A stretch of 47,153 bases of DNA from a virus. Taxonomy: Duplodnaviria > Caudoviricetes. A program made the translations under genes and the position numbers. How positions within the stretch are numbered: the first letter of the stretch is position 1; each line of letters starts with the position of its first letter. The stretch lies in IMG/VR virus record IMGVR_UViG_3300030372_004498, positions 1-47,153 of that record; one strand, given 5' to 3'. This document shows positions 22,856 through 44,112 of this stretch, piece by piece. The notes under the pieces are model-generated. The model ran no database searches. It saw only the letters and a program-made list of their open reading frames with translations, and was not told where the DNA came from.

Positions 22856-23512
22856 ATCGTGTCGCCTCAGTTATTGGAGGTTGTGGGCTTCCCGCCCGTG
22901 GTGCGTATCGCCGCCGCGTTGCGCCTATGTGCGCTGAGAAAATGACCGGGCCCCATATGGCCTATATCGCCACATTTTGCCGCTAATGGCCTTATTTTAT
23001 TGACGCAAAGGGCCGGGCCCCAAATGACCCGCGCATGTCCGAGGCCGTAGCCAAGTGCAGAGGCGCGTGTCGTATGGTGGGGTATCCGGCTCATGGCTTG
23101 GGATAGCGGCCTTGCGTTCGCCCCGTTGCTGCCTTTGCCCAAGCGGTTCATAGCAGCGAATGTGTTTGAACGCGCCCCGGCGAGCTTATGCTACTGACGC
23201 TTGCCGGGTTATCATGCTGCCACATGGGGTAATGCCAGACGCGCTCTGGAGACGCCACTAACTTGCAAGTTTCAGTCGAGCTTCCCGACCTAGTGACGCC
23301 ACCAGAAAGCGGCTTAGAAAGCGCGGGGCGATGATTAAAGACCTTCGCTCTTACTATCGGGACGGTCAGGCGAGTCCGCGCCATAATCACAAAAGGCAGC
23401 ATTCCCGCCACCTCTTGCGATAAATCACACTCCCACGTTTAAGAGGTGCAGTCAACCCCGCGCGCGCGATTATGCGATTCTTTGTCGTCGGTCAATTGGC
23501 TCAGAAAGCCTC

Positions 23513-23665
23513 CTATTTGGACTGACCGGAAGGAACCCACACATACAGGGCAGGTCCACCGCGATACGCCCAGAACTCGAAACCGCCGCGCACCCACGCA
23601 AATCGCCGGAAGGGGCACTGCGGTCGGGTGAGGCGACGAATGTACTTAACTTTTCTGCCAAACAT
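23513..23665 (-). CDS. Small hypothetical protein flanked by cassette-junction repeats (50 aa)
   Basis: AGGAG SD; MFGRKVKYIRR...SGQSK; both flanks carry CCARATAGGAG. Confidence 0.65.
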   Translation of the reverse strand: MFGRKVKYIRRLTRPQCPFRRFAWVRGGFEFWAYRGGPALYVWVPSGQSK

Positions 23666-23675
23666 GCCTTCGCTC

Positions 23676-24230
23676 CTATCTGGCCTTCCGCTCCAACTTA
23701 TCCGCCAGCCGATCAAGCGCCGCTGCCAGATGCTCTTTCCCCTTCGGCACCGCCTTGTAGCGATACTCGCGCAGATGGGCCACAGCGCGGCCCTCACAGG
23801 CCACCGCCTGCAAGATTGCCTTGTCCTCTGCCGCGACCAGCTTAGACACGCTGAGATAGGCGCTCATGCGGTCTATGCGTATATCAATCGCTTGGTCCGG
23901 CTTGGGGCTGCTGTCCACTACGGGGTCGCTGTAGTCCTTGCCCTGCCCCATTTCGGTCTTGGCCCATGCATCGCGCAGTGTCGCCCCGGCAGTTAGCTGG
24001 CGATTATCAATCACCCCGTCCTTGTGGTACTTCTGGAGCATGTCCACCCGGCGCATCCGCTTTACGTTGTTGGGGTTCACCTGCTCGCCCTTTTCGTTTG
24101 TCCACGTCACAGGCTCTTGCACGAGGTGAAGGCGGTTTGCCGGACCCCGTGCGCCCATGTCCCAATGCTCAGGCATCGCGGCCACTGTCACGGGCGTTTT
24201 CTTCTGTGCTGCCTTCTTACGTCTCGCCAT
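23676..24230 (-). CDS. DUF6456-like late transcriptional regulator (Q/GafZ-like antiterminator)
   Basis: DML..YH..G.ID.RQ..AG..LR..W...L..V.CEG...L..ALDRLA pattern; position at the end of the early operon, upstream of terS. Confidence 0.7.
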   Translation of the reverse strand: MARRKKAAQKKTPVTVAAMPEHWDMGARGPANRLHLVQEPVTWTNEKGEQVNPNNVKRMRRVDMLQKYHKDGVIDNRQLTAGATLRDAWAKTEMGQGKDYSDPVVDSSPKPDQAIDIRIDRMSAYLSVSKLVAAEDKAILQAVACEGRAVAHLREYRYKAVPKGKEHLAAALDRLADKLERKAR

Positions 24231-39799: not shown

Positions 39800-39815
39800 T
39801 GGCGGACCCTAGAGG
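39800..39815 (-). other. attP core resembling a tRNA 3' end (CCTCTAGGGTCCGCCA)
   Basis: Parses as T-arm half + acceptor half + G discriminator + CCA; 25 bp after int; flanked by TTGGAAAC arm-type repeats (39726, 39738, 39901). Confidence 0.75.
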
Positions 39816-39910
39816 TCTGCGCGAAACCTGCGCCCGCCATGCACTTACGGGGAAACCGGATGCATCGCGGGGCTATGGTTGCCGATGGTTAGCGGGGGGA
39901 TTGGAAACGG

Positions 39911-40081
39911 TTAGTCCGAAACCCGCTTGATGCCGTGAGTGTCTTGAAGTTCATACGCCACGTTATGATCCCCCTCCCACTCGCCAGCCTCAAACTTGGC
40001 CCACGCTTCTTCTTCGGTTTCAGCCTCAACTGTCACCAGATCAGATGCGATGTATGTTGCCTTAATCTCAAATTCGGCCAT
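39911..40081 (-). CDS. Small acidic protein (56 aa, not in ORF track)
   Basis: MAEFEIKATY...VEAETEEEAW; ATAGGAG SD. Confidence 0.75.
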   Translation of the reverse strand: MAEFEIKATYIASDLVTVEAETEEEAWAKFEAGEWEGDHNVAYELQDTHGIKRVSD

Positions 40082-40115
40082 GTCTATCTCCTATGTTGAG
40101 GGGGGCTTAGCCCTC

Positions 40116-40349
40116 CTATGTGGACTTGAAGCGGGCGAGATAAGCCCAAGCTTCATCAAGTTGATCATCATCAAGCCGCAGCGCGGCCAGAGCCTCCACC
40201 AGCGCCCGCGCCTCTTTGGTCATCCGCTTCGGTGGCTTTGGGCATTGGCAATCCGCATGGTCTCCGCCGACAGCCCGGCTCCAACAGCCCGGCACGAGAA
40301 ACTTCCCGCCCGGAACATCATCAGCCTTATGCCACCGACAAACCTGCAA
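40116..40349 (-). CDS. Cassette hypothetical protein (TTG start)
   Basis: AGGAG 7 nt before TTG; CRW....PGC......DC.C. Confidence 0.7.
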   Translation of the reverse strand: MQVCRWHKADDVPGGKFLVPGCWSRAVGGDHADCQCPKPPKRMTKEARALVEALAALRLDDDQLDEAWAYLARFKST

Positions 40350-40359
40350 ACCCGCGCTC

Positions 40360-40611
40360 CTATTCAGACTCGCCAGTAAGGCCGGTAGCCATCGCGGCAT
40401 CCCACCCGTCGTTGTGGCCAAGAACGTAGCAGCGATCTGACTTGAACCGCTCAATCGCGCGCGCCTGCTCTTTCAGCTTGTCGCTCACTTGATCGAGGAT
40501 GTGCGCGTGCAACCCCATTGCGGCCAGCCCTTCACGCATCTTGTGCAGGTCTTGGCACATGACGCGCACTGCCGCGTCCTTGGGATTGTGCATTTCAACT
40601 GTATCAGCCAT
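40360..40611 (-). CDS. Cassette hypothetical protein
   Basis: 83 aa; AGGAG SD. Confidence 0.75.
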   Translation of the reverse strand: MADTVEMHNPKDAAVRVMCQDLHKMREGLAAMGLHAHILDQVSDKLKEQARAIERFKSDRCYVLGHNDGWDAAMATGLTGESE

Positions 40612-40620
40612 CGCTTTCTC

Positions 40621-40881
40621 CTATTCAGACTCACGGCGCGCGCGGGTCATGCGCGCCAATTCCTTCATTGTGACCTCGACCGCGCCAGCCTCAACGGCAA
40701 GCGCCCGCTTTGACATGGCTATGTCGAAATGCTCCCGCGCTGTTCCCGCGCTCTGTATCCACTTGCGCGCGACACCGATCCGGTCGGCCATTGCTAGCAA
40801 TTCCTCGGTGCTATCCGCTATCATGTGGCACATTTTCATCCGTCCGAACTGCGCCTGCATGTTGTCGACATAAACCGCCAT
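40621..40881 (-). CDS. DUF4031 family protein
   Basis: MAVYVD......GRM.MCHMIADS.EEL.AMA.RIG..R.W.Q......HFDI..SKR..AV..GA. Confidence 0.85.
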   Translation of the reverse strand: MAVYVDNMQAQFGRMKMCHMIADSTEELLAMADRIGVARKWIQSAGTAREHFDIAMSKRALAVEAGAVEVTMKELARMTRARRESE

Positions 40882-40891
40882 CGCCATTCTC

Positions 40892-41086
40892 CTATCTGGA
40901 CTCGGCGCTGTCGAGAAAATCGACGTGCGCGCCCTTCTTCGTCACCACGCAATCCGAAGCCCGCGCGCGGCACGGTGGCCACCCCGCAGGCTCAACAAAT
41001 TCGCCGGCCCCATCGGTTCCTGCACGCAGAACAACCCAGTCCTCACCTGTCGGCTTGTGATGGACCTCATCGCCTCGCTCAATCAT
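40892..41086 (-). CDS. Cassette hypothetical protein
   Basis: GD.V.H.PTGE.WVV...GWP......SDC; AGGAGG SD. Confidence 0.75.
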   Translation of the reverse strand: MIERGDEVHHKPTGEDWVVLRAGTDGAGEFVEPAGWPPCRARASDCVVTKKGAHVDFLDSAESR

Positions 41087-41096
41087 ACTGCACCTC

Positions 41097-41891
41097 CTAT
41101 TTGGATTTAGGTTTCATCGATAGGATACGCGCCGCCGCTTCGGGGCTTACATCCTCGACCATCCGCGCCGCTTGCTCGATGAACGCGCCAGCGTGAGGCT
41201 CTACCACCCGCTTATTATGGGCGGGGTTCTCGAAGTATATCGCCACGCGTTCAGCCGCCAACGCCTCGCGCATGGTGCCGTAATACTCGACATCAACGCG
41301 CGCGCTGTCCGGCCACCAATCTGACTGGCTTTTGTGCTGCTGTTCGCGGGTCCGATGATTGATGCAGGCACCCACATAGAGTAGCGCACCATCTGCATCG
41401 AAATGCCGATAAACGCATGGGCGGCGATCCGGCAGCGGCGGGCCTTGAACCTCGACCACCTTCTTGCGTTTGCGCTTCTTGCCAACGCGACGGCTCTCCG
41501 AGACGTGAAAGACATTTTGGCGGCGCGCGACCTCGGCCACGAAAGCCGCTTCGTCTTCGGGCGTGGTGATCTCTCCGCCGCCGACCACAAGGCGAACCTC
41601 CTGCTCCGCCACTGCGTCAATCAGCCAGCGCGCGTCGTTCTTTGACACGGCGGCGCAGAACTCGGAATGAACGTGGATTTCATCACCCGGCAGCGCGGCG
41701 AAAAGAAGATCGTTGCGCCCGACCAACTGGTTTTGAGGGCGGGTCGATCCACGCGAAATATCATCTTCCCAGATCGGCCCGAACTGGTCGTCAGAGACGC
41801 CGGAAGCGACCAAATGCGCTATCTGATCCTTGCGAGAAGGACGCCCCGGCGCGGCGAGGATGTAGCCCCACTTTATGGATTCACCGACCAT
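41097..41891 (-). CDS. Degenerate resolvase-fold domain fused to a GIY-YIG nuclease
   Basis: N-terminus aligns to the resolvase pattern (GY...S...Q...L...G...IWED..S...R..LL...PGD.I.V) without the RVS/DRL residues; C-terminal VYR.FD....LLYVG......R..QH...AE..AI..ENP.HN. Confidence 0.75.
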   Translation of the reverse strand: MVGESIKWGYILAAPGRPSRKDQIAHLVASGVSDDQFGPIWEDDISRGSTRPQNQLVGRNDLLFAALPGDEIHVHSEFCAAVSKNDARWLIDAVAEQEVRLVVGGGEITTPEDEAAFVAEVARRQNVFHVSESRRVGKKRKRKKVVEVQGPPLPDRRPCVYRHFDADGALLYVGACINHRTREQQHKSQSDWWPDSARVDVEYYGTMREALAAERVAIYFENPAHNKRVVEPHAGAFIEQAARMVEDVSPEAAARILSMKPKSK

Positions 41892-41895
41892 CTTC

Positions 41896-42099
41896 TTAAC
41901 ACCCCTCGGCGTCGGGGGGTGTCTGATCACCTTCTTTCATCGGGCCATTTTGCCCCGCCAAGAACTGGCGAAGCGCGGCGACGATCACCGCAGACCGCGA
42001 AGGCGGCACGGGTTGCTGGGCGATCCATGCGTCCAAATCCGCAAGCAGATCGGGCGGCAGGGTCGTGTTCACGGGTTTGTTTATACGCGGCATATTCAT
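41896..42099 (-). CDS. CopG/RHH transcriptional regulator
   Basis: VNTTLPPDLLADLDAW......SRSAVI..ALRQFL. Confidence 0.85.
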   Translation of the reverse strand: MNMPRINKPVNTTLPPDLLADLDAWIAQQPVPPSRSAVIVAALRQFLAGQNGPMKEGDQTPPDAEGC

Positions 42100-42106
42100 G
42101 CCTTTA

Positions 42107-42182
42107 CCGATAGCGCACACACAAAGCAACGTCAACACTTGTGCGCACACATGTTGACGAGTGCGCACACATCGGCTAGAAA
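42107..42182. promoter_or_regulatory. Back-to-back promoters with GCGCACACA operator repeats
   Basis: Plus TTGACG(42154)-17-TAGAAA; minus TTGACG(42135)-17-TATCGG; GCGCACACA at 42113, 42143, 42163; GTCAACA/TGTTGAC inverted repeat. Confidence 0.75.
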
Positions 42183-42213
42183 GGGTGCAAATCCACCAAT
42201 CCCCGGAGGCACC

Positions 42214-42405
42214 ATGGCAGAGGAAACGTACAGCACAGACGGGCCGGAATGCCCCTACTGCGGCCACCAGCACCAGCCGAGCGAAGACCCCGGCCACTAT
42301 TACAACGAGGGCAATGACAGCAGCACATGCGAAAGCTGCGACAAGGACTTCAAAATGTCGGTCTATGTCTCGCACTCTTGGACCTGCGAAACCTTTGACG
42401 ACTGA
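42214..42405 (+). CDS. Small zinc-ribbon protein
   Basis: CPYCG...CESC.K.F; GGAGG SD. Confidence 0.8.
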   Translation: MAEETYSTDGPECPYCGHQHQPSEDPGHYYNEGNDSSTCESCDKDFKMSVYVSHSWTCETFDD

Positions 42406-42429
42406 ATCCAACAATCCCCGGAGGCACCC

Positions 42430-42630
42430 ATGAAGATCAACGCGGATACGGCAGAGGGCGGCGGGCGCGTCGAAGTTGAAGCCACAGAGGATGGCAACGT
42501 CCTCCTCTCATGGCTCGCTGCGGACGGCGAAACGTTTCGCTGGTGGAAGCTCGGCGCAGAGCAAGCCGACCACCTCGGCGACATCATCAAGAACCACGCA
42601 CGGAAGGCGGCGGAAGCCGCGTCCAGCTAA
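42430..42630 (+). CDS. Cassette hypothetical protein
   Basis: 66 aa; GGAGG SD. Confidence 0.75.
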   Translation: MKINADTAEGGGRVEVEATEDGNVLLSWLAADGETFRWWKLGAEQADHLGDIIKNHARKAAEAASS

Positions 42631-42644
42631 CCCCGGAGGCCGAT

Positions 42645-42953
42645 ATGATTTCAAATATCAGCGAAAAGATAGGGCCAGCGCGCAAGCCGCACCGCTGCGA
42701 AGAATGCGGGCGCACGATCCCGAAGGGCGAGGTTTATCTGCGCCAAGTCAACGCGGACGGAGCGCAGGTTTGGACATTTAAGGCTCATACAGATTGCGCC
42801 GAGTTGGGCGTTGCCTACCGGACAAAGCATAGGCTGTGGGACGAATACGATTGGCTTCCGATGTATGAACTCGCGGACGACGACCACCTCTTAGGCCAGT
42901 GGCGAGGGCGCTATCCTCACGCCGTTTGTCGCCTCGAATTTAACCAGTCCTAA
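42645..42953 (+). CDS. Cassette zinc-binding protein
   Basis: ARK.H.C.EC...I.KGE.Y.......H..C motif; GGAGG SD. Confidence 0.8.
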   Translation: MISNISEKIGPARKPHRCEECGRTIPKGEVYLRQVNADGAQVWTFKAHTDCAELGVAYRTKHRLWDEYDWLPMYELADDDHLLGQWRGRYPHAVCRLEFNQS

Positions 42954-42970
42954 AAACCCCCGGAGGCACT

Positions 42971-43207
42971 ATGACCGACCTAGATATAATCAAAGCCCTG
43001 CAAGACGGGGACCGACCCACCTTCGGCATCCATGGCCGAAACATGGAGGTTATGGGCCTAATGTCGCGGATGGAGGAAGCGGGGCTGATAAGTACCGACG
43101 ACGCCAGCCTGTCGCAAGAAACCCGCCGCCGCGCGATATGGGTTGCAGAGGACCGGCGCGGGGAACAGCCCGCGTCAATTCTCGCGTCCCTGTCGCAATC
43201 CAACTAA
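42971..43207 (+). CDS. Cassette hypothetical (winged-helix-like) protein
   Basis: 78 aa; GGAGG SD. Confidence 0.75.
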   Translation: MTDLDIIKALQDGDRPTFGIHGRNMEVMGLMSRMEEAGLISTDDASLSQETRRRAIWVAEDRRGEQPASILASLSQSN

Positions 43208-43228
43208 CCCCCATCACAGGAGCCACAC

Positions 43229-43497
43229 ATGACTGAGACAGCACCGGAACGGATATGGGCGACACATAGCGAGACGTGGGCGCTGTTGAGTTGGGGCAAT
43301 GGGCTGACACAGTTCGCCATAAAGGCGGAACCGAATACGTCCGCGCCGATCTGCTGGATGATGCGGTGAAGGCGCTGGAACGTGCGCTTGATTGGGCAGC
43401 ATGTCACCGCGACCACCCCGGCACGATCAACCATAATGCAATTCTGTTTGACCTAGAAGCGCGGGAAGTCCTCGCCAAGCTAAGGAGCAAGCCATGA
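43229..43497 (+). pseudogene. Frameshifted APERIW...EYVRADL-type phage gene
   Basis: MTETAPERIWATHS in one frame, GQW...TEYVRADL in another; shift near 43270. Confidence 0.6.
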
Positions 43498-43658
43498 AGG
43501 TATCAGGACCATATATTGAGTACGCCCGCCACAAGTGCGGCGTCTTGGTTTCGGAAAAGGTGAACCCAAACACTGACAAAATCAAAGCGCGAATGGACGA
43601 GGTTCGTGAACACAACGATACCGCCGTTTGCGCCCATTGCCAAGGACAGCACCCATGA
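43494..43658 (+). CDS. Small hypothetical protein (54 aa)
   Basis: AAGGAG SD; ATGA overlaps. Confidence 0.65.
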   Translation: MKVSGPYIEYARHKCGVLVSEKVNPNTDKIKARMDEVREHNDTAVCAHCQGQHP

Positions 43659-43972
43659 CCAATGCAAACGCATTACCGATACAAGCGCGGCTGCGAGGTT
43701 CAGTAGCCGCCGCAGCGCAGGCATACACCGATGCATGGTTCAACAACCCCGGAACCGCCCGCCCGGTTCATTGCATCCCAGCAAAGGAAACCGACACAGA
43801 CTTGGTTTTAGCGCAAGGCATCAAAGAAGCCGCCGACCGCATAGACGCGCTAGAGAAGGCGCTGCGGGAGGGTCGTGACCTTATTGCAGGCGATGCAACA
43901 GGCGCAGAATGGAAGCGGGGATGCAGTGCGTTTCTGCAATCCGCCCGCGCCGCGCTTGGGGAGGGGGAGTAA
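43655..43972 (+). CDS. Hypothetical protein
   Basis: EAADRI..LE.ALR...ARAAL, a common phage motif. Confidence 0.7.
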   Translation: MTNANALPIQARLRGSVAAAAQAYTDAWFNNPGTARPVHCIPAKETDTDLVLAQGIKEAADRIDALEKALREGRDLIAGDATGAEWKRGCSAFLQSARAALGEGE

Positions 43973-44112
43973 TGGACCGCCTAATCTCATGGCTTTACAC
44001 GCGCCGGATATGGGGGCCGCGCTGCCCTGACTTTGACCCGGACTGCCGCGTTTGCCGCCGATGGGCAGAGCATGACGATATGTTTGGCGATAGCAGCACT
44101 ATCCCCCTGTAA
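43972..44112 (+). CDS. Small Cys-containing protein
   Basis: WG.RCPDFDP.C..C..W. Confidence 0.6.
   Translation: MDRLISWLYTRRIWGPRCPDFDPDCRVCRRWAEHDDMFGDSSTIPL

Follow-up and report, generated by a model that had tools for sequence, protein, structure and literature searches.

The window analysed here is the whole 47,153-nt stretch of virus record IMGVR_UViG_3300030372_004498 (IMG/VR; Caudoviricetes), a complete 47-kb record with direct terminal repeats, which encodes an integrase and a Rad52-type gene and whose sequence is present in marine metagenomes. Positions 39911–44112 hold two divergent arrays of tiny genes around a resolvase-like central gene, and the genes of these arrays are exchanged among related loci as single cassettes at short conserved sites; of this we have next to no doubt. 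It is a real and apparently undescribed cassette system: a literature search, with subscription papers outside its coverage, found no published account of one. Judging from sequence comparison, it is reasonably probable that this is a serine-recombinase system, the enzyme catalysing the exchange of single genes at a short site that lies at the end of each.

Cassettes are gained, lost and reordered at the sites

The relatives of the window are phages and prophages of Alphaproteobacteria, among them Aurantimonas phage AmM-1 and prophages or phages of Alloyangia, Salipiger, Leisingera, Amorphus and Devosiaceae. The array module is found in unrelated phage types: AmM-1 is contractile-tailed, carries ParA and has no integrase, and in L004 the module lies among structural genes. 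Here and below, L-numbers denote related loci, X-numbers sequencing runs, which were examined as contigs, and G023 a genome.

Across 60 loci, after removal of duplicate loci, 40 of the 48 internal ends of near-identical blocks (100–1500 bp at ≥97% identity) lie within 20 nt of a site, positions that make up 2.9% of bases, the ends being counted pairwise and therefore not independent events. A preliminary description of this DNA, made from the letters of the window alone, had proposed just such a check on the breakpoints of relatives, and they do fall at the motif. L040 is 99.8% identical to the window over 41094–42204, with divergence setting in at the head site in either direction: identity ends at the last base of the first left-type site (41094..41106, minus strand) and at 42204, where the first right-type site ends (42191..42204, plus strand, just past the promoter). 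The same arrangement as in this comparison was found in runs X7, X8, X13, X5, and X9. In L054, the first and second left cassettes of the window recur at 100% identity with their order reversed and another gene between them. L052, L053, and L054 are 100% identical over an 800-bp core, on either side of which each has a different first cassette, the breaks lying at the sites. Cassettes are duplicated within L015, L027, L033, L054, and L105, the copies being 97%–100% identical in L033, L054, and L105. Cassettes are thus lost, duplicated and reordered among related loci, bearing out the earlier proposal of exchangeable one-gene units.

One cassette pool is common to loci with an intact and loci with a disabled recombinase, and 8 of 33 sampled cassette genes have a Pfam match. 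In contig data, a diverged contig of run X2 contains one joint that goes back from 42969 to 42622 across a stretch of unspecified letters. The left arrays of prophages L038, L076, L232, and L034 carry longer, bacterial-looking cargo (DUF2971, DUF2513, beta-flower, Trypco2).

The junction sites

The left-type site, RTCYNNNTAGGAG, matches the window six times against 0.16 expected (none of 100 shuffles reaches six), and the right-type site, RTCCNNNWAWCCCC, five times against 0.16 expected; both patterns were derived from the same window sites, which makes the shuffles a partly circular test. The left-type consensus RTCY-NNN-TAGGAG stands at all five junctions after the resolvase-like gene, and the right-type consensus RTCC-NNN-WAW-CCCC at five of the eight right-hand gene starts. 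In a motif-independent check on 57 array loci, 177 of 297 sites have TCY at a constant position ahead of the ribosome site; in 31 control loci, 1 of 53 sites does. The conserved junction motif that the preliminary description had reported holds up on the window counts, as does its choice of the early genes (31.5–38.6 kb) as a negative control, where 1 of 22 junctions matches a relaxed site pattern. Its wording that nearly every junction carries the motif fits 10 of 13, the last three on the right (43494, 43655, and 43972) being plain overlaps without a site; and the motif does not contain or abut an upstream stop codon at 42191, where the site comes after the promoter.

Intergenic gaps in the arrays are 10–25 nt. 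The array junctions have no inverted repeats and no Rfam match, no tRNA or known RNA family was found, and a scan for promoters and terminators gave three promoter-like sites (2.2 expected) and one terminator-like site, none of which marks the junction series. A protein-level signal (Ser-x-stop) was rejected because the site is also found out of frame or after the stop codon. TCY as an anti-ribosome-site hairpin was rejected on the base preceding it, which is a purine in 176 of 177 sites and never C, the pairing never being extended into a stem. A longer right-type variant, AACCCGCAACC(C)GTTCGTCAGAGG, recurs every few cassettes in L033, L070, and L082.

The site could also be read purely as an expression or protein-binding signal, the genes being moved by short-homology or illegitimate recombination with selection for intact genes, and the recombinase acting only as a regulator. 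In favour of this, TCC can fold onto the ribosome site at 4 of the 10 window junctions (pair probability 0.47–0.89; a 3-bp stem). Pairs of window sites have, however, only 6–17 identical bases in common, below the published pairing minima of 23–27 bp for Red-beta and 31–34 for RecA (PMC3945230), and no annealing protein is common to the array phages among the Rad52/Sak, RecT, and ERF types searched, Sak4 and Gp2.5 types being outside the search: Rad52/Sak occurs in 1 of 27 array-bearing records, RecT in 2 of 17 and ERF in none of 17.

The preliminary description had named three mobilising candidates, and it would be very surprising if any of them were the answer: its resolvase-fold/GIY-YIG fusion nicking the sites, or the phage integrase or Sak carrying out the exchange. 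The window does have an integrase and a Rad52-type protein, and GIY-YIG recurs next to the central gene in several loci (fused in the window and L028, separate in L030 and L079, N-terminal in L024). None of the three is common, however: 8 of 56 disabled-clade representatives carry a fused GIY-YIG, and the integrase is found in 13 of 17 array-bearing records, the four without a match including AmM-1. Sak/Rad52, RecT, ERF, and the integrase were rejected as the common enzyme on this ground. The intact small serine recombinase of relatives is an alternative candidate to these, proposed from sequence.

Position of the exchange within the site

The right-type site has the form NNNN WAA CC CC GG and the left-type site NNNN ATA (or AAA) GG AG. 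The right-type WAA-CC-NN-GG matches the inner part of the cores given for Gin (CTGT AAA CC GA GG TTT TGGA) and Hin (TCCT AAA CC AT GG TTT AGGA), for which one A-to-T change at positions 6–4 is described as tolerated per half-site (PMC3985619). All 12 left-type 3′ ends lie at or past the AG, seven of them exactly at it, and the informative left-type 5′ ends start at most three bases before the AG, so that the crossover lies within AGGAG in these cases. The upstream half-site, variable NNN included, stays with the upstream cassette. RTCY lies on the upstream side of the usual breakpoint and so escapes homogenisation by exchange; its conservation outside the exchanged part, with no extension into a stem, counts against a pure expression signal. 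Among the right-type 5′ ends, one misfit is off by a single base within the C run.

An intact serine recombinase clade at the array centre

Motif scans led to a complete small serine recombinase as the central gene in L008, L013, and L022, and a scan seeded with intact recombinases gave 12 clade loci and 15 unrelated resolvases. The intact clade (PF00239) occupies the same central array position as the disabled gene in relatives and has a three-helix C-terminal domain (helices 165–176, 182–191, and 198–209). RxS and DR(L/M)xR motifs are both present in 79 of 91 intact-clade homologues, most of the others being partial, and this retention of the catalytic motifs is a further point against a recombinase that only regulates. 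Three or more strict sites are found at 25 of 35 disabled loci, 8 of 17 intact loci and 1 of 15 unrelated resolvases; three more intact loci have two strict sites, and the strict pattern misses visible arrays, as in L081. Scans with the motif alone gave mostly chance single matches (119 loci without a recombinase, with fewer than two sites), and L132 and L153 have three site matches each, yet are not arrays.

A tandem RTCY pair lies upstream of the gene in 15 of 17 intact loci, 1 of 35 disabled loci, 1 of 15 other resolvases and 10% of random windows. These copies of the junction motif run head to tail, 12–13 bp apart, often with one pair each way over the divergent promoter region, and in L081 the tandem promoter pair runs into the first junction. 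Loss of the C-terminal helix-turn-helix (HTH) accompanies loss of the tandem copies, a pattern expected if the HTH binds the motif. The recombinase very probably binds the junction motif.

An outer member of the intact clade, L102, has palindromic GTCC sites and no array; these may represent an ancestral res site. In GenBank phages and plasmids the intact clade had no match at E 1e-30 and 1e-45, and five of five host genomes have some resolvase-family gene. One genome, G023, holds an intact array (L232) and a disabled array (L038) together. In L009 (3570–7489), a 98% complete provirus has ten right-type sites, a duplicated cassette and no resolvase match.

The disabled central protein of the window

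The central gene of the window (41097..41891, minus strand) fuses a dead small-serine-recombinase domain (about 41472–41891) to a GIY-YIG domain (about 41199–41420), and its 3′ end makes up the first left-type site. The N-terminal 140 residues fold like gamma-delta resolvase (Tn3 resolvase profile, E 4e-4; model pLDDT, the predicted local distance difference test, 94.6; Foldseek match to 1zr2, E 1.7e-6, TM 0.74); the resolvase-like domain alone had no match against viral contigs. The catalytic residues given for Tn3 resolvase are Y6, R8, S10, D36, R68, and R71 (PMC2794168). Y6 and D36 are kept, while R8, S10, R68, and R71 are lost throughout 41 aligned disabled-clade homologues: S10 is never serine, R8 is leucine in 40, R68 cysteine in 39, and R71 hydrophobic. 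The C-terminal HTH is absent from the window protein. The dead resolvase fold of the preliminary description is thereby supported, and on its sequence the protein cannot act as a serine recombinase. The cysteine at residue 79, in place of R68, is conserved in 39 of 41 disabled-clade proteins together with a conserved R17-P18, which hints at a new function. A quick tree shows the disabled clade as one long-branch group, not placed.

At the array centre of L024 (5890–6601) and L027 (6448–6645) there is instead a small helical gene, and in L024 this is followed by a fusion of GIY-YIG with a truncated intact-clade domain: here the recombinase was lost once more, in a separate event.

When the catalytic domains of an intact and a disabled protein were modelled together, the score was 0.74 against 0.00 for the best control, a mark that 116 of 157 solved pairs reach, as do 2 of 215 mismatched ones; at least 75% of contacts recur between runs, and the partner pLDDT is 85–86. 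The modelled contact involves disabled-protein residues 6, 39, 65, and 67, aligned with Tn3 R2, R32, K54, and E56, that is, with the R interface, described as the route by which non-catalytic subunits activate crossover subunits (PMC9943657). The R interface is present in solved crystals, and the pass may therefore be memory on the part of the model. Pairing of the disabled protein with an intact enzyme through this interface is a lead.

The state of this gene also raises the possibility that the system is a relic, built by an intact recombinase, in which arrays with a disabled gene now change only by homologous recombination over shared cassettes or flanks. The window has no intact enzyme in cis, a frameshifted gene and a siteless tail; the tandem promoter sites are lost at 34 of the 35 disabled loci, and the right array is nearly empty in L040. 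Against such a relic stand the differing first cassettes around the identical core of L052, L053, and L054, with breaks at the sites, the 97%–100% identical internal duplications in L033, L054, and L105, and the disabled gene itself, whose end still forms a site at 24 of 35 loci (strict pattern). We regard a relic as improbable.

A candidate mechanism and the evidence against it

In the serine-recombinase mechanism that we propose, the HTH of the intact enzyme would bind RTCY-NNN-WA, as suggested by the tandem copies that overlap the enzyme's own promoter. Each junction would comprise one conserved half-site, on the upstream cassette, with the ribosome site as the poorly conserved other half, and crossover would take place at AG in the left array or CC in the right array, the different central dinucleotides preventing recombination between the two divergent arrays. 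The tandem copies in the promoter would double as an operator and an accessory site, in the manner of the regulatory site II of Sin, described as a head-to-tail pair (PMC2428073). The window phage would need an enzyme supplied in trans, since its own protein lacks catalytic residues and the DNA-binding domain. The weakest step is the last, in which the disabled protein would pair with the intact enzyme at the R interface and regulate it.

A number of observations weigh against catalysed exchange of this kind. A fixed dinucleotide fits 28 of 40 breakpoint ends, with 8 of 12 right-type 3′ ends, 3 of 9 right-type 5′ ends and 5 of 7 left-type 5′ ends in agreement; the remaining 12 trace back to roughly five or six events, with breaks directly after RTCC in some cases and at ATG in others, and the diverged X2 contig, which breaks just after GTCC at 42950, is a further misfit. 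The crossover sites that known small serine recombinases require are two-fold. The junction sites have no inverted motif downstream of the dinucleotide, and their spacing from TC to the crossover is 10–12 nt, compared with 9 in the Hin core. The tandem promoter pattern was picked after the promoters had been viewed, and the intact loci are related to each other. The R-patch positions vary within the disabled clade, and the quick tree gives no support to its descent from the intact clade. Neither the window nor 20 other array-bearing virus records contain an intact resolvase (disabled gene or no recombinase), and arrays without an intact enzyme nonetheless shuffle. The intact clade is rare, in 4 of 401 sampled genomes of one family, with the disabled clade in four others, so that supply in trans would be occasional. 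Finally, an excised cassette circle was not shown in the 8 of 20 runs examined, all of them contigs (X4 having scattered cover only).

Of these points, the 12 ends off the dinucleotide at several positions, the preponderance of arrays with a disabled gene only and the existence of arrays without any resolvase (L009 and L027) also speak for the site as a mere signal with unaided recombination; given the short identities and the retained catalytic motifs on the other side, we hold that account to be unlikely. The serine-recombinase system, in its general form, is the reading that we prefer. Its fullest version is a phage “serine integron”: 13-bp half-sites embedded in stop codons and ribosome sites, two orthogonal arrays, a cassette pool across alphaproteobacterial phages, and a dead paralogue lacking DNA binding that would dock through the regulatory interface and so switch the borrowed enzyme on or off. 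As a whole, this version is possible but doubtful.

Organisation of the arrays in the window

Beside the central gene lies a ribbon-helix-helix (RHH)-type repressor gene (41896..42099, minus strand), 43% identical to the gene upstream of the intact recombinase in L074. It is followed by back-to-back promoter-like elements (42107..42182), read from the letters and of putative function, with TTGACG-17-TATCGG leftward and TTGACG-17-TAGAAA rightward; the consensus scanner did not list them. Three GCGCACAC repeats in this promoter region, at 42113, 42143, and 42163, are the only three in the genome and are likely RHH operators.

In the left array, all on the minus strand, site 1 at the array head is followed by sites 2 to 5 at 40889..40901, 40618..40630, 40357..40369, and 40113..40125. 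Cassette 1 (40892..41086; 64 residues, no assigned function) is 100% identical to a cassette in L054 with other neighbours, where the identical copy of cassette 2 (40621..40887; DUF4031) precedes it, a third gene lying between. Cassette 3 (40360..40611; 83 residues) has a 99% identical counterpart directly after the intact recombinase in L073, and cassette 4 (40116..40349; 77 residues) has homologues in L040 and L052. After site 5 come a hairpin and second ribosome site (40079–40119), also seen in L020 and L040, which may end or attenuate the transcript, and then the last left gene (39911..40081; 56 residues, phrog_12843), replaced in L040 and L020. Beyond it, a 101-bp block (39808–39908) recurs at 98% identity in L020 and L040, two loci with integrases other than the window's, and ends in sequence like a tRNA 3′ end; this tRNA-end-like 16-mer near 39800, a putative attP, had no match in five genomes.

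The right array, on the plus strand, has sites 2 to 5 at 42406..42419, 42621..42634, 42947..42960, and 43198..43211 after the head site. Its cassettes 1–4 (42215–42405, 42430–42630, 42645–42953, and 42971–43207; together 42215..43207) are all missing in the close relative L040. Within the rightward run of tiny genes given in the preliminary description, 43229..43497 is a single fifth gene, frameshifted near 43260–43280; the frameshifted form is identical in copy L039, and no indel occurs in runs X1 and X2. Relatives keep only the last 27 bases of this gene as a common block. The three genes that follow (43494..44112, plus strand) have ordinary start–stop overlaps and no site, and are not cassettes of the system.

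Contrary to the preliminary description, the module is not self-contained: a solitary left-type cassette of 50 residues (23509..23683, minus strand) occupies a secondary site 16 kb away from the arrays and is closed by the sixth left-type site (23510–23522, minus strand). It is inserted after gene 23676–24230 at a near-match site, shares 94% identity with an array cassette in L105, and has homologues in the arrays of L105 and L004.

Meaning and comparison with known systems

Mosaic boundaries between tiny genes in phage genomes are usually ascribed to chance recombination and selection. Here each boundary is formed by a conserved site that goes with a single recombinase clade, so that a dedicated phage gene-shuffling machine becomes directly testable, and the site marks a pool of mobile, mostly uncharacterised phage genes; the cassette behaviour itself is well established, whether or not the enzyme brings it about. 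If the proposal is true, cassette arrays have arisen twice, the second time with serine chemistry; their sites, small enough to fit inside stop codons and ribosome sites, would be of use in assembling genes.

The PeSL cassettes of T4-type phages are alike in that small phage genes are shuffled at conserved intergenic elements; as described, PeSLs are promoter-plus-terminator elements (PMC2839356), whereas the array sites are far shorter, have no promoter and travel with a recombinase family, and a sigma-70 promoter with a terminator stem-loop was not found at each junction. Tn3/gamma-delta and Sin resolvases are alike in fold, and the head-to-tail pair beside the intact gene resembles Sin site II (PMC9943657, PMC2428073, PMC2794168); their non-catalytic subunits, acting through the R interface, are the model for the disabled protein (PMC9943657). 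In contrast to resolvases, the junctions lack a symmetric site I, there are many sites per element, and the window protein is without R8, S10, R68, R71, and the HTH. With Hin/Gin and their hix/gix sites, the likeness lies in the enzyme family, the inner WAA-CC-NN-GG, the A-to-T tolerance and the inferred 2-bp crossover (PMC3985619). The array sites differ in being direct repeats with one half conserved, co-oriented within arrays instead of inverted and two-fold around an invertible segment, and the outcome is gain, loss or reordering, not inversion.

Integrons are close in logic, as the preliminary description had noted, and this stands: both have promoterless one-gene cassettes in tandem, each with a site at its 3′ end, and in both the array head carries a promoter and a recombinase gene, and enzyme-less arrays (CALINs in integrons) and solitary cassettes at secondary sites occur (PMC8618304). 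The IntI and folded attC described for integrons (PMC8618304) are lacking here, the central gene having a serine-resolvase fold and no attC hairpin following each gene, while one-gene cassettes are exchanged at a 3′ site in both. The phage-borne system instead has two divergent arrays with an associated small serine recombinase, and its site, about 13 bp long, overlaps both stop codon and ribosome site.

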